From a virus, in the IMG/VR virus record IMGVR_UViG_3300010381_000012: a DNA stretch of 64,000 bases; one strand, given 5' to 3'. A program made the translations under genes and the position numbers. Within the stretch, counting starts at the first letter, position 1; each line of letters opens with the position of its first letter. Shown here piece by piece: positions 1 to 47,581 of this stretch. The notes beneath the pieces are model-generated. The model had not been told where the DNA came from and ran no database searches. It saw only the letters and a program-made list of their open reading frames with translations.

Positions 1-240
1 GCAATGCAGCGTCATGCCGAGAATGCGGCGGTCGAGTGCGTTGTAGTAGCCGTCGGTATGCCAGTTGATCGGCTTGTGGGTGTAGGGAATGAAGTCGCCG
101 CGTACGCTGCTGCCTTCTTCCCCGGCCGGAGTGATGCTGGACAGCCCGTCCTCGTCGGCGAGGTAGTTGCCTTCCAGGCGGGCGAGGCCGAGCTGTTGTG
201 CCAGTTGGTGTGGCAGCGACTTGTCGGCGGCGGGCAGGTG
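1..240 (-). pseudogene. N-terminally truncated TauD/TfdA-type Fe(II)/2-oxoglutarate dioxygenase fragment (runs off window start)
   Basis: Minus frame 240->1 reads HLPAADKSLPHQLAQQLGLARLEGNYLADEDGLSSITPAGEEGSSVRGDFIPYTHKPINWHTDGYYNALDRRILGMTLHC with an HxD motif (WHTDG). Upstream the frame enters the tmRNA and meets TAA at 340-342. Confidence 0.7.
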
Positions 241-597
241 GGGGCGCCCTGGTTTCGACGGGGATAGTGAAGCCCTGGTTGCAGGTCGAGGTGCCGCGAG
301 GCCTCGTAAAACACGCGGCAACTGGTTAACTGCCAACGATTACGATTACGCTCTGGCTGCTTAATGACAGTCAGCGTCCCCTCAGCTGACGCCTGATACG
401 CTGAACCGGGACGCCAACCCCCATCAGGCTGGCGCAAACCTTCGTCCGTTGAGGGGCGCGCGAGACAACAGACGGACTGGCCGAAGGCGGCCCGGCCGGA
501 AGGCCTGCCCGAGGCGAGATTGTTTTTCGGTCTAAGCCTGTAGACGCTAGGAGCGGAGCATTCTCGGACGGGGGTTCGATTCCCCCCGCCTCCACCA
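241..597 (+). ncRNA. ssrA: tmRNA (SsrA)
   Basis: 5' GGGGCGCCCTGGTTTCGACGGGG; tag ORF 332-364 ANDYDYALAA*; 3' T-arm GGGGGTTCGATTCCCCC then GCCTCCACCA. Confidence 0.97.
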
Positions 598-7646: not shown

Positions 7647-9475
7647 CACTCCCCACCTCCCTCGCCCATCGCCTCGCCCACAAACCGGCTTACGGGGCTT
7701 TCGTAGACGCGCACCCGGCCGTCCTGGCCGATCTTCTCGCTTCGCTCCGGCCGAACGGCCAAGGTCAGGGCGTCCCGGGCCCGGGTTATGGCCACGTAGG
7801 CAAGCCGGCGCTCCTCTTCGATGTCGCCGGCGTCCACGGCGCGCTTGCTCGGCAAGATGCCCTCGTTGCAGCCTGCAAGGATCACGTAGGGCCATTCCAG
7901 GCCCTTGGCGCCGTGGATGGTGGCCAAGGTGACAACGCCGGGTCCGTCAGGATCGGCGGCGGGTATCTCGTCCTGGACGTCGTAGGTGGAGAGCCATTCG
8001 AGGTAGGCGGAGACGGTGCGCTCCTGTGGTGGGCGTCCGGTGCAGTAGTCTTCAAGGAAGGTCAGCACCTCGACGGCTGGAAGGGGTTCCTGGAGGTCGT
8101 CGCAAGGCTCCATGGCCGTGTCGAGGTCAGTTCCTCCAGAATGGATCGCAAAAAACCGCACGGCTTCCCCGCTGGCGTTTTCAACCCATGCTTGGAAGTG
8201 GCTCTTGTCCTCTCGAACCGCCCTCCCCCGGATCGCGGCATACTCGTCATCCGAGATGCCCAAGGCTTCCCGGATCAACAGGAACGCGAAGTTGTCGAAC
8301 GGGTTCACCAACAACTTGAGGAACGCATGGAACCGCCGGAACTCCTCGCTGTTGGTCAGCGCGGCCTGCCGCCCAACGTAGAGGTACGGCACGCCCTGGG
8401 CGTCCAGTTCTTCGGCCACGCGCTGAAGCAGGACGTGCTTACGGGCAAGGATGGCGGTTTCGCGGGGAAGAAACCGTTCCGGTGTTGCGGCTTGGACCAC
8501 GCTGGCAATGACCGCGCTGTCCATCTCCCGGCGGGTATCAACAAGCGCCCCGTCTTCCCGATAAGCGGTCATGGTCTTCGACAACCGGATCACGTTGTGG
8601 TCGATCAGGCGATTTGCCATTTCGACCACCTGCCAGCCCGACCGATAGTTTCTCTCCAGTCGCATGACTTTGAAGCTGTCGGCGTTCTCGATCAGGTATT
8701 CTGGGCAAGCGCCCCGCCAGGAGTACAAGGACTGGTCGATATCCCCGACCGCGAACAGCGTTGCCGACAACCCGGCGGCCATGGACTCCAGGAGGCCCCA
8801 TTGCAGCCGGTCAAGGTCCTGGACTTCGTCCACCAGCGCGTGCCGCCAGCCGAGGTATTGCATGACCTTCGGCAGGAGCAGCATGAAGCCGGTGAGGAGC
8901 CCACCATAGGTCAGGGCGTTGTTTTCGCGGCATCGGGCCATGAAGGCGCGGAAGAGGTCGAACACCCCCTTGTCGAGTGCGGAAGGCTCGATGCCGGTCG
9001 CGTAGTAGGCTCCGAAAGCCGCGTCGATTTCCTTCTTCGGAACCTTCCAGGCCTTGCCCTTGAGCGCCCCCATCTCCGTGGCCACCTGCCGCAAAAGAAA
9101 CGACTCCTCCCATTCGCTGTAGACCGTGATATTGTCCGGCCGCAGGCCGAGCAGCTCCCCGAACCGGCGAAGCTGCACCAGGGCCAGGGCGTGCATGGTG
9201 CCCATGGTCACGCCGTAGGCCTTGTTGCCGATCCGCTTGAGCAGGCGTTCACGCATTTCAGCCGCGGCCTTTCGGGTGAACGTGACGGCCACGATCTCGG
9301 ACGGCGAGGCCTGGCACTCCTCGATCAAGTAGGCGATCCGCTCGGTGAGCACGCGCGTCTTGCCGCTGCCGGCCCCGGCCAGAACCAGGGCCCGGGGCGC
9401 GTCGGTGGTCACGGCGGCAAGCTGGTCCGGGTCGAGCACGGCGCGCGCGGCGCAGCCAGGATTAGGCGTTTCCAT
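7646..9475 (-). CDS. UvrD/PcrA-family SF1 helicase
   Basis: LDPDQ, AGAGSGKT, VDEVQD, VGDIDQSLYSWRGA, NYRS, TIHGAKGLEW, EERRLAYVAITRA. Confidence 0.97.
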   Translation of the reverse strand: METPNPGCAARAVLDPDQLAAVTTDAPRALVLAGAGSGKTRVLTERIAYLIEECQASPSEIVAVTFTRKAAAEMRERLLKRIGNKAYGVTMGTMHALALVQLRRFGELLGLRPDNITVYSEWEESFLLRQVATEMGALKGKAWKVPKKEIDAAFGAYYATGIEPSALDKGVFDLFRAFMARCRENNALTYGGLLTGFMLLLPKVMQYLGWRHALVDEVQDLDRLQWGLLESMAAGLSATLFAVGDIDQSLYSWRGACPEYLIENADSFKVMRLERNYRSGWQVVEMANRLIDHNVIRLSKTMTAYREDGALVDTRREMDSAVIASVVQAATPERFLPRETAILARKHVLLQRVAEELDAQGVPYLYVGRQAALTNSEEFRRFHAFLKLLVNPFDNFAFLLIREALGISDDEYAAIRGRAVREDKSHFQAWVENASGEAVRFFAIHSGGTDLDTAMEPCDDLQEPLPAVEVLTFLEDYCTGRPPQERTVSAYLEWLSTYDVQDEIPAADPDGPGVVTLATIHGAKGLEWPYVILAGCNEGILPSKRAVDAGDIEEERRLAYVAITRARDALTLAVRPERSEKIGQDGRVRVYESPVSRFVGEAMGEGGGE

Positions 9476-10058
9476 GGGTGTCCTCCACGCGGACCACGTC
9501 CCAGCCCTCCGGGACTCCCGCCGGTTCGTGACAACTGTTGCAAATGACCTGCGTCCCCGGATTGGTGGCGGCCATGTGTTCCAGGGCCAGGGTAAGGTGA
9601 GCCTCGTCGAGCTCGGCCGCCTCGAGGATCAGCACTCGGTGCTTGGCGTCACCCAGGAGCGCATGGGCCAGGGCCGCGTCGAACAGCACACGTTGCCCGC
9701 CGGAAAGGCCGGCGTGGGGAATCTCCTCCCCATCCGGCCGCCTCCAGGCCAGGGCCACGGCGCCGTCGTCCTCGATGCGCATGTCCGCCTTCCCCTCGGG
9801 GAGAATCTGCCCCATGGCGGTGGCCAGCTTGGCACAGGTGGCGGCCACGGCCTTGGCCTTCTGGCTTTTGAGGTCCTCCAGGATGGCCTTGGCTTCCCCG
9901 GCGGCTTTGCGGGCTTCGGCGGCCTTGGTCCGCTCGGCCTCGGCCGCCTCGTCCAGCCCCTTGGCTTGGTTGTAGAGGGCGATCTCACCCCGCAGAGACT
10001 TCAAGCGGGCCTCGAGGCCCGCTATTTGTTGTTCAAGAATCGCAGTGTCGGCGCTCAT
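9462..10058 (-). CDS. Rad50/SMC-like ABC ATPase, C-terminal half
   Basis: N-terminal coiled coil; signature LSGGQ; Walker B/D-loop-like VLILEAAELDE; H-loop NSCH. Confidence 0.8.
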   Translation of the reverse strand: MSADTAILEQQIAGLEARLKSLRGEIALYNQAKGLDEAAEAERTKAAEARKAAGEAKAILEDLKSQKAKAVAATCAKLATAMGQILPEGKADMRIEDDGAVALAWRRPDGEEIPHAGLSGGQRVLFDAALAHALLGDAKHRVLILEAAELDEAHLTLALEHMAATNPGTQVICNSCHEPAGVPEGWDVVRVEDTHGNA

Positions 10059-37338: not shown

Positions 37339-37401
37339 GAACTTGACTCCATCGATTTGCGGGCCTACCCTCTTCTTTGCTCGAGATCGGGGTAAGCCCT
37401 G

Positions 37402-37444
37402 GTTTCACTTCCAGCCCCTACCGGTTGCCGCCGGTGGGGGCTTT
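37402..37444 (-). repeat. Solitary CRISPR-repeat-like hairpin (weaker copy)
   Basis: AGCCCCCACCGG-CGGCAA-CCGGTAGGGGCT followed by GGAAGTGAAAC. Confidence 0.4.
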
Positions 37445-44839: not shown

Positions 44840-44935
44840 GACTTCACCTTTTCGCGGGTCGGATAGGGCGCGCGCCTGACAAGCGGAATCCCCGGCCGCT
44901 TCCGGCCCGCAATAACGGGGGAAGGGGAAAACATC

Positions 44936-45762: not shown

Positions 45763-46398
45763 TTAGAGTTTCGCGGCCAGCACCTTTCCTCTCTCTAAAA
45801 CCGTCTCATCCTCGACCGCCGCCAACCCAGCCCAGCCCAGAAATTGCGCCATGGTCACGCGCTCACCTTCCGGCAGCCGTGCATTGATGCGTGACAGACC
45901 TGCCGCCAGCATCCGCTTGACCTCAGGGGCTACGTGGATGCGCAAACGTCCCTCGCGATCGTCTTGACGGCGTTGCTTGTACCGATCCTGGGGCTGCCGG
46001 CGATCACCCTCGGCGACAGGCGGCGGAACATCCCGGAGGCGCGCCTGCTTCGCAATTTTCACGGGTTTTAACCCTTCCTTGCATGCCTTGACCTTGACCG
46101 CGCCGACGCTGCGCTTGAGCGAGGCAGCAATCTCCTCAACGGATTTCCCGCCCTCAATCATCTCCCGCATGCGCGGAAAATCCTGCGTCCACGACTTGCC
46201 AGCCGTCTTACTGTAGAGCGCGCCAGCATGGCGGTAGTGCTCGGCGTACCATTTTGCAGCCGCCACCGTAGACGTGTACCAATATCCGGCACGCTCTTCT
46301 CCGTCACATAGATTGTTTTTTATTGCCTGCACAAGAGTCGTTCGGTCAACGCCCATCCGCTTTGCTTCCTGTGCGGCCGAAATATCGTATTTTTGCAT
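45763..46398 (-). CDS. Double-HTH DNA-binding protein (Aca-like candidate)
   Basis: SAAQEAKRMGVDRTTLVQAIK and KSVEEIAASLKRSVGAVKVK; RBS GGGGTAGGGG. Confidence 0.7.
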   Translation of the reverse strand: MQKYDISAAQEAKRMGVDRTTLVQAIKNNLCDGEERAGYWYTSTVAAAKWYAEHYRHAGALYSKTAGKSWTQDFPRMREMIEGGKSVEEIAASLKRSVGAVKVKACKEGLKPVKIAKQARLRDVPPPVAEGDRRQPQDRYKQRRQDDREGRLRIHVAPEVKRMLAAGLSRINARLPEGERVTMAQFLGWAGLAAVEDETVLERGKVLAAKL

Positions 46399-46432
46399 CC
46401 CTACCCCAGCGCAGTAATTGCACCATAGTGGT

Positions 46433-46473
46433 GTTTCAATCCACGCTCCGCCATCTTCAGATGACGGGGCGAA
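46433..46473 (-). CRISPR. Solitary type I-C-like CRISPR repeat unit with extended stem (no array)
   Basis: TTCGCCCCGTCATCTGAAGATGGCGGAGCGTGGATTGAAAC versus recalled Desulfovibrio I-C repeat GTCGCCCCCCACGCGGGGGCGTGGATTGAAAC; last 14 nt identical. Confidence 0.7.
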
Positions 46474-46481
46474 GCATGACG

Positions 46482-46724
46482 TTATACCCTCACCCTGCAA
46501 ACAACGTCTCCGTTGGGGTAAACATCAAAAGCGCAAGGTGAATATTCGGAGTTTCTGTTCAAAAACCAATCCAATTCGGAAAGTCCGTCGTCGCCCGGTT
46601 CTTCTGAAAACGTCCTTCCGATGTTTATTTTTGCATACCACCCATCCATATTCCCATTGCCTTGCCATTCGAGCTGATACTTTACGTCGTCAAGCCATAT
46701 TGATTTTGGTAAACGGTGTATCAT
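46482..46724 (-). CDS. Small acidic protein (Acr candidate)
   Basis: 80 aa, D/E/W rich; GGGAG RBS. Confidence 0.65.
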   Translation of the reverse strand: MIHRLPKSIWLDDVKYQLEWQGNGNMDGWYAKINIGRTFSEEPGDDGLSELDWFLNRNSEYSPCAFDVYPNGDVVCRVRV

Positions 46725-46744: not shown

Positions 46745-47377
46745 CTAATCCCAATAGGCGCTCTCGGGCAGCCAGTTATCCAGTACGGCGCGGGCCTCGT
46801 CCTCGCTACCGCCCTCAGCCAATATCGCCACGGCCTTGGAGCCAGCGGAGGCCTTGTGGTGGTTGCTGGCGCAAGAGTAGCTTTCGGCCTTGAGGTAGAG
46901 AGCGGCGCGGGGGAACTGTGCGGCGAGGTCAGACGACGAGACGGCTGGTTTGGTAGGAGGGTTGACGCCGTCGTTGCCCTCGTCTTTCATCATGCGCTCA
47001 AATTCTTCCCGGTAGCGGGCCTCGTCCGCACGGGTGGCACGCAGTTTGGCAAGGCCAGGAACGGCCAGTTCGAGGGCGTCCTCGCGATGATTACGAGCCG
47101 CGATATAGTTGTCGCGGTATTCGGCCAAGGCCTCGTCAAAGGCAGGCTTGGCCCCGATGGCCATAACATACCCACCCCAAAAATAATCGACAGGGTCTTT
47201 TCCGGCCTTGCGGACCATGTCCACCGCGAACTTGGGGAGCGGGTAGTCCGATTTGAAATTCAGAGGGAAATCGAAATCCTGGGTCCTGCCGGCCTTAGAA
47301 ATTCGGGCCTTGCCAGCATCCGTATCAACCTCAATGGTTAGTCCAGCCAAGTCCCGGAAAATTTCGCGCATTGCCAT
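46745..47377 (-). CDS. Hypothetical protein, first gene of accessory operon 2
   Basis: AAGGAG RBS; 210 aa; strong coding bias. Confidence 0.8.
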   Translation of the reverse strand: MAMREIFRDLAGLTIEVDTDAGKARISKAGRTQDFDFPLNFKSDYPLPKFAVDMVRKAGKDPVDYFWGGYVMAIGAKPAFDEALAEYRDNYIAARNHREDALELAVPGLAKLRATRADEARYREEFERMMKDEGNDGVNPPTKPAVSSSDLAAQFPRAALYLKAESYSCASNHHKASAGSKAVAILAEGGSEDEARAVLDNWLPESAYWD

Positions 47378-47482: not shown

Positions 47483-47581
47483 GAAAAATTTCAGTCCGCG
47501 CAAAAAAGTTTCGGTGCTCGCATTATGGCCTAAAAAAGGCCGCCCTCCCGAGCGGCCCATATCCTCTTATTCTCCCCTGCC

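Follow-up and report, generated by a model that had tools for sequence, protein, structure and literature searches.

Introduction

Phage RNAs that commandeer Cas proteins have been discovered only very recently. Those described so far act as sponges for Cas proteins (Racr) or imitate a host regulatory RNA that is directed to a promoter (Cracr). RacrIC1 is a solitary type I-C repeat within an mRNA; it is active and lies 11 nt downstream of an acr gene, in one transcript with it (PMC10651486). In a Cracr, which is phage-borne, a degenerate repeat precedes a short guide with a PAM-proximal partial match to the host CRISPR locus. A single repeat with a single pseudo-spacer (psiR and psiS) is a described Cracr architecture (CracrVA1), type I-C candidates have been predicted, and the elements are often found beside acr genes (10.1101/2024.10.29.618823). 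Type I Cascade skips pairing at each sixth position of the guide; regulatory guides often carry mismatches there, and partial guides mismatched at every sixth position bring about repression without cleavage (PMC10120712). At the protein level, CasPR phage proteins bind inside cas coding sequences and block RNA polymerase, and one of them is needed in lysogeny (10.64898/2026.02.23.707548).

We analysed a 64,000-nt stretch of viral DNA (IMG/VR record IMGVR_UViG_3300010381_000012), referred to below as the window, in which a type I-C repeat-like unit (psiR) is followed by a pseudo-spacer (psiS) that runs up to the start codon of a gene for an HTH protein (Table 1). Like RacrIC1, the unit is a prophage-borne I-C repeat that stands alone, a few nt past a small ORF and without cas genes; Racrs, however, only sequester Cas proteins and are target-free, whereas here a PAM-matched partial guide follows the repeat. 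Its likeness to Cracr RNAs is that the psiR-psiS unit is phage-borne and joins a degenerate repeat to a PAM-flanked partial guide, and the inverted elements of sister prophages fit that class directly. In contrast to described Cracrs, which mimic host CreR or CreA and target cas or creT promoters, as is also seen in one sister prophage (L002), the window guide points to a coding motif inside the cas3 ORF, is like no host crRNA-like RNA seen, and sits in an RNA that has no terminator and runs into an ORF. With CreR and CreA (10.1101/2023.03.10.532045; PMC10120712) the unit shares the 5' handle, ~10-21 nt of seed-side pairing, sixth-position mismatches and, by prediction, binding without cleavage, and such elements occur in the I-C loci of this bacterial family. 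The genes for CreR and CreA, however, belong to the cas locus, and the host uses these RNAs for autoregulation or toxin control, whereas the window unit is phage-borne and has its target in a coding region. Like CasPR, the unit would be a phage factor that silences CRISPR-Cas from within a cas coding region, but CasPRs are DNA-binding proteins (CapR and AP2 domains), shown for types I-B and II-A, while here a host Cascade reprogrammed by RNA would bind. Known Cracr and CreR targets are promoters, and there is no precedent among RNA anti-CRISPRs for a target inside a gene.

We favor, with some reserve, the reading that psiR-psiS is a Cracr-like phage guide RNA of type I-C, which recruits host Cascade to the coding part of cas3 and, without cleavage, shuts down the operon.

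Table 1. Features of the repeat locus and the corresponding repeats of related phages (positions are those of the window unless a locus is named).
Feature	Position	Strand or orientation	Remarks
Type I-C repeat-like unit (psiR)	46433..46473	(-)	41 nt; based on sequence, fold and uniqueness
Predicted 11-nt 5' handle, UGGAUUGAAAC	46433..46443	(-)	Same letters as family I-C repeat handles
psiS guide part, positions 1-21, ACCACTATGGTGCAATTACTG	46412..46432	(-)	Partial match to cas3 coding strand, TTC PAM at target
psiS 3' part	46399..46411	(-)	Shine-Dalgarno-like GGGGTAGGG of HTH gene; no target match
Gene for 211-aa HTH protein	45763..46398	(-)	Last gene of leftward operon
80-aa acidic ORF with RBS	46482..46724	(-)	Stop codon 8 nt before repeat; ORFan
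Gene for 210-aa conserved protein	46745..47377	(-)	Upstream border of variable slot
Repeat in L025 and L019/L020		Same orientation to HTH gene as in window	Nearly same first 16 nt after repeat
Repeat in L003, L004 and L026		Strand opposite HTH gene	Shortened repeat, ~18 nt, hairpin, T-run
Repeat in L002	5870-5950 of the locus	Minus strand of locus; opposite HTH gene	Two-repeat mini-array

Results and discussion

A solitary type I-C repeat in the leftward operon

Read 5' to 3' on the minus strand (46473-46433), psiR consists of TTCGCC, a hairpin and GCGTGGATTGAAAC. The marks of an I-C repeat are all present, namely (G)TCGC at the 5' end, a GC-rich hairpin with CGC/GCG as its closing pairs, and the handle. 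The handle, UGGAUUGAAAC, is the canonical I-C handle. The preliminary description had proposed a comparison with host arrays; among arrays of the host's family, the CRISPR repeat of one genome, G070, ends in the same 17 nt as psiR (GGAGCGTGGATTGAAAC, handle plus stem base). [quoted passage not shown] In the predicted fold, the hairpin stem starts with 3 bp, continues after a C/A mismatch with 8 bp and ends in a UGAA loop (-16.9 kcal/mol, z = -3.3). The earlier claim of a solitary 41-nt type I-C repeat is therefore borne out by handle, stem base and fold, although the stem, put at about 13 bp in that account, comes to 11 bp with one mismatch, compared with 7 bp in real repeats of the family. 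This long stem and its C/A mismatch might impair Cas5d.

The 14-nt 3' part of psiR occurs once in the window; the other matches to it there number six, all at 3 mismatches (7 found versus 6.8 expected). A weak handle-like site at 47488-47501, with 3 mismatches, lies in an AT-rich promoter-like spacer and was judged to be a chance occurrence. We regard psiR as more than chance because diverged relatives hold an I-C-like repeat at the same place. The absence of another full copy and of cas genes, previously reported for the window, holds for the whole 68-kb provirus record as well: psiR is present in one copy, there is no array, there are no cas genes, and Cas5d had no match in the provirus. Exact copies of the 40-nt unit were found neither in species-representative genomes nor in IMG/VR, and an Rfam scan at gathering thresholds gave no match to a CRISPR-repeat family.

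The position of psiR 8 nt after the small ORF suggests co-transcription with that ORF. No consensus promoter was found near psiR, and the unit has no second repeat or terminator that would define the 3' end of its RNA. Contigs assembled from RNA runs cover the psiR region evenly; these are contigs only and cannot show transcription.

The features given so far could be accounted for by a plain Racr decoy, which is the main rival to our reading. The repeat would be cut and bound by Cas5d, Cas7 would polymerize on whatever sequence lies downstream, Cas proteins would be sequestered, and the match to cas3 described below would be functionless. A solitary I-C repeat in a prophage without cas genes, placed directly after a small ORF as racrIC1 is after acrIC5, is in keeping with such a decoy, and a decoy needs no target. 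With RacrIC1 as precedent, the RNA anti-CRISPR role put forward in the preliminary description is a sensible frame for the locus. What speaks against a decoy as the full explanation comes from psiS and from the related phages.

A PAM-flanked match between the pseudo-spacer and cas3

The pseudo-spacer comprises exactly the 34 nt (46432-46399) that had been counted between the handle and the HTH start codon, and the N-termini of four homologues confirm the ATG at 46398. Its length fits the spacers of arrays in the family, which range from 33 to 37 nt. Type I-C systems, which the preliminary description had mentioned for Desulfovibrio, are common in the family of the host (Cas8c in 78/301 genomes).

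The preliminary description regarded the 34-mer as a place for Cas7 to load and proposed that it be searched for TTC-PAM targets. That search located a site in cas3 of two genomes, G215 and G070, and the first 21 nt are not a mere landing pad but a PAM-flanked partial guide against cas3. With G070 cas3, positions 1-21 of psiS pair with mismatches at 6 and 18 only; with G215 cas3, the match is 16/17; in both genomes TTC precedes the target. The match begins at the first base past the handle; counted to position 17 or to position 21, it comprises 15-18 effective pairs in G215 and G070, where the PAM is TTC. In place of the 3' part of psiS, the related phage L019 has another RBS-bearing sequence.

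The target lies ~1.2 kb into an ORF with Cas3_HD, DEAD and Cas3 C-terminal domains. It spans the codons V-F-T-T-M-V-Q-F-L, the Phe codon being the TTC PAM, and the F-T-T-M-V-Q-F-L site is conserved in I-C cas3 across several phyla. The guide is apparently aimed at a conserved coding motif of cas3. This would be a different choice of target from that of the described phage RNAs and one that is harder to escape, because the host can vary synonymous positions only.

As a control, the 127,958 21-mers of the window (both strands) were searched against 372 kb of family I-C loci. Only one, which begins directly after the handle, finds a TTC-flanked site at which all paired positions match; five others match these loci, but without a PAM. 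Since the locus set had partly been fetched through the PAM and seed pattern, the independent statistic is co-location with cas8c. The codon-level PAM and seed pattern has 12 matches in the family, and 11 of the 12 are inside cas3, sharing a contig with cas8c, which lies ~2.1 kb downstream of them. A degenerate 14-mer seed gave 23 matches in the 301 family genomes, which is chance level; one of these 23 sits in the I-C locus of G215, has TTC before it and extends to 16/17 nt. Within G215, the sole genome-wide match to the 14-nt seed is the one in cas3. The combined handle and seed pattern gave chance matches only in species-representative genomes and none in IMG/VR or JGI metagenomes, and no host crRNA-like element with a psiS-like guide was found in species-representative genomes or family loci. 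The decoy reading would have to set aside a register-exact, PAM-flanked 21-nt match that is unique among the 21-mers of the window.

Elsewhere in the window (37339-37444, minus strand), we observed a hairpin whose downstream sequence, CTGGAAGTGAAAC, differs from the I-C handle; 21-mers from this stretch had no TTC-flanked match in the family I-C loci.

A guide matching cas3 could also be an inert relic, that is, a decaying repeat with a self-targeting spacer gained by recombination from a host array, or a site of DNA-level recombination with host arrays. A spacer taken from cas3 beside TTC would initially look alike, only 21 of the 34 nt still match, and a promoter or terminator was not detected. 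Against this, the prophage lies beside a tmRNA gene and not in a CRISPR array, and the conservation of the unit in related phages, described below, also speaks against a relic.

Type I-C loci of the host and its family

The prophage, which comes from a sulfate-reducing bacterium, adjoins ssrA: the tmRNA gene (window 240-597, plus strand; Rfam 186.7 bits) is found at the provirus edge. Of 301 genomes, G215 comes closest in this tmRNA flank of the window, at 99% identity, and it is from this close relative that we infer the presence of a type I-C system in the host and the cas3 allele that it carries. G215 has a full I-C locus with an array of 25 repeats, and its cas5 starts 17 nt past cas3. Spacers of the G215 and G070 arrays have chance matches of 11-17 nt only in the window; there is therefore no sign that these arrays target this phage.

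The I-C loci of G215 and G070, which belong to clade B, also contain solitary repeats. That of G215 is located between cas7 and cas4 (L101, minus-strand offset ~945-1040). Its guide is unrelated to the phage guide, which is therefore not a copy of it, and no seed target of the G215 guide was found within 18 kb. In G070, a solitary repeat is located upstream of cas3 (L103, minus-strand offset ~1290-1320), and its guide is likewise unrelated to that of the phage.

A solitary degenerate repeat and guide just before cas5 are found in many Desulfovibrionaceae I-C loci (at ~700 in L040, L043, L044, L050, L051 and L066), and these elements look like host CreR-type I-C autoregulators. One genome of interest is that of S. 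alcoholivorans DSM 5433 (G001), the host of the sister prophage L002, which has a type I-C system (Cas8c, array repeat). Its cas3-cas5 spacer (L011 ~9380-9490) contains a solitary degenerate repeat and then a guide-like sequence; a partial target of this guide, mismatched at 6 and 18, is found ~60 nt upstream. This is the layout of the host crRNA-like RNAs that regulate cas genes. G001 belongs to another I-C clade, in which the homologous cas3 codons read V-V-T-T-S-V-Q, with no TTC and no match to the window guide, and this fits the presence of a different guide in the prophages of that clade.

Two further observations concern this group of genomes. G001 has another solitary, nearly canonical I-C repeat at L013 ~2064-2095 (G001:C10:86062-86093). 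Solidesulfovibrio sp. DCME (G002; L012 8100-8925) carries a sister prophage with an I-C-type unit; because this genome has an I-E-type array and no Cas8c, a system cognate to the unit is absent from the host that now carries it.

The variable slot in related phages

The region between the conserved 210-aa gene and the HTH gene is a variable slot, which in relatives holds unrelated small ORFs or none. The 210-aa protein that borders it is 76% identical at the same position in L019 and is also encoded in L026 and L029; it had no match in Pfam, PHROG, PDB or Atlas. Most of the close relatives also have an I-C-like repeat in the slot, in one orientation or the other (Table 1). Across these units the stems vary in sequence yet still pair, and the CGC/GCG base and the handle are kept. 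Conservation of the handle in related prophages, which the preliminary description had asked for, is seen in those relatives that have a unit.

In the three diverged sense-type phages (HTH proteins 63-84% identical), both the handle and positions 1-16 of psiS are kept. The guides vary at positions 3, 6, 12 and 15, which correspond to the third positions of Thr, Thr, Val and Gln codons (n=3). The L019 allele fits the cas3 allele of G143/G042 with mismatches at 6 and 12 only, and the window allele fits G215 and G070; with n=3 phages, the guide alleles seem to follow synonymous variation in cas3. Past position 17, the L019 guide is unrelated to those of the window and L025, and while L025 keeps the 34 nt, the spacing in L019 is 41 nt. 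These three are the only sense-type examples known, with none more in IMG/VR, JGI metagenomes or species-representative genomes.

This pattern bears on both of the alternatives raised above. A relic should not keep its handle and seed where flanks, stems and downstream sequence have diverged, nor should its stems vary and still pair, and we consider that explanation improbable. For the decoy, the difficulty is that the seed is kept in diverged phages and changes only at third-codon positions of cas3 or at flipped-out positions, and that sister phages hold clear guide-type RNAs in the same slot. Sequestration with a meaningless cas3 match is therefore unlikely to be right, if still to be taken seriously; decoy action is more probably one additional effect than a complete account.

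The guide-type RNAs of the sister phages are encoded by the inverted units. The second guide of L002 matches the promoter-region target of the G001 regulator at 15/15 paired positions, with mismatches at 12 and 18 only, and because of this match to the target of a host regulator we consider the inverted units to be Cracr-type mimics. The first spacer of L002 (32 nt) has no other copy in IMG/VR; its best match in the family, 13/15 with TTC in G293, near crRNA-like elements, is suggestive only. A single genomic slot would then be supplied with guides of different sequence and in either orientation, matching two I-C clades.

Promoter and terminator scans of the inverted units gave nothing at the thresholds of the tools. 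By eye, promoter-like hexamers precede these units (4/6 each, 17-nt spacing, 6 nt before the repeat), and they are weak, since the scans found nothing at thresholds. In L026 (3930-3985), two partial repeat ends are arranged face to face (ACCCACGCCGGC ... GCCGGCGTGGGT), which could be a trace of an inversion that flipped the cassette between phage lineages.

A possible route from the phage RNA to cas silencing

Our reading of psiR-psiS as a Cracr-like guide RNA builds on what is observed at the locus: the identity of the repeat, the register-exact and PAM-flanked match to cas3, the conservation of handle and seed, and the presence of guide-type RNAs in the slot of sister phages. The steps that would lead from these to silencing are as follows. 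The RNA would be transcribed within the leftward operon, and host Cas5d would cut it at the base of the hairpin, so that the RNA begins with the 11-nt handle and continues into the pseudo-spacer. On this phage RNA, Cas7, Cas8c and Cas5 would assemble, and the first 21 nt of the pseudo-spacer would guide the complex to the TTC-flanked site in the middle of cas3. By analogy with the RNAs CreR, CreA and Cracr, pairing that ends at 21 nt should give an incomplete R-loop, with no recruitment of Cas3. Cascade bound in this way would then be a transcriptional roadblock on cas3; in G215-like loci, where cas5 directly follows cas3, the roadblock would also hit the genes for Cascade. As a likely second effect, the RNA would compete with real crRNAs for Cas proteins in the manner of a Racr. 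The phage probably turns the host CRISPR machinery against its own expression, beyond merely soaking it up.

If so, the range of RNA anti-CRISPRs would come to include type I-C in sulfate reducers. The element also provides a simple search rule for others like it, namely to look anywhere in the cas genes for a PAM-flanked match to the seed that comes after a solitary repeat.

The HTH gene and its leader

The preliminary description had placed the HTH gene at the center of a Cascade-sensing switch, in which Cas5d and Cas7 on the leader would block translation of the HTH repressor, so that the upstream genes would be on only in CRISPR-positive hosts. The arrangement of the leader is in keeping with this idea: psiS contains the RBS and ends at the ATG, 34 nt is a typical spacer length for the family (33-37 nt), and L025 keeps the same 34 nt. 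In relatives, however, the repeat is on the opposite strand, at 41 nt or absent, and coupling in cis to the HTH gene is therefore not a conserved design, although Cas5d cleavage and masking of the RBS may still take place in this phage.

Nor do its matches and genomic context mark the HTH protein as an Aca. It has a weak Pfam HTH_23 match, a PHROG 323 regulator match and HTH_17/AlpA-like leads. Its homologues are few (47-84% identity), come from Solidesulfovibrio prophages and metagenomic phages, and occur both with and without an upstream repeat; a profile search of metagenome contigs gave no match. The repeat-free homologues lie at the end of an operon for SNF2, PAPS reductase and ParB, and distant ones have neither the gap nor the repeat upstream. 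The HTH gene ends the replication operon in relatives and is more probably a core phage gene than a dedicated Aca. As for the upstream genes that a switch would control, the ORFs in the slot are unrelated between relatives. The 80-aa ORF, which lies where the preliminary description had placed its Acr candidates, has a good RBS and, by eye, a G+C content below its surroundings; it had no Pfam, PHROG, PDB or Atlas match and no homologue among 5.8 billion proteins. With the match to cas3 left unexplained as well, we regard the switch as highly improbable.

Another form of coupling would be compatible with the guide RNA reading that we prefer. The last 13 nt of psiS are the ribosome-binding region of the HTH gene, and capture by Cascade would use up that leader. 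The transcript could then do two jobs, as a Cascade roadblock in cas3 and as the HTH leader, with each loaded Cascade removing one HTH message. We think this quite unlikely; if true, HTH output, together with anything under the control of the HTH protein, would report the amount of Cas5d and Cas7 in the cell.

One other RNA candidate was noted near this operon. At 44856-44921 (plus strand) the window has an Rfam match to the int-alpA sRNA (39.8 bits; gathering score 35.8), which falls between genes of the tail region, its strand converging on the HTH operon.
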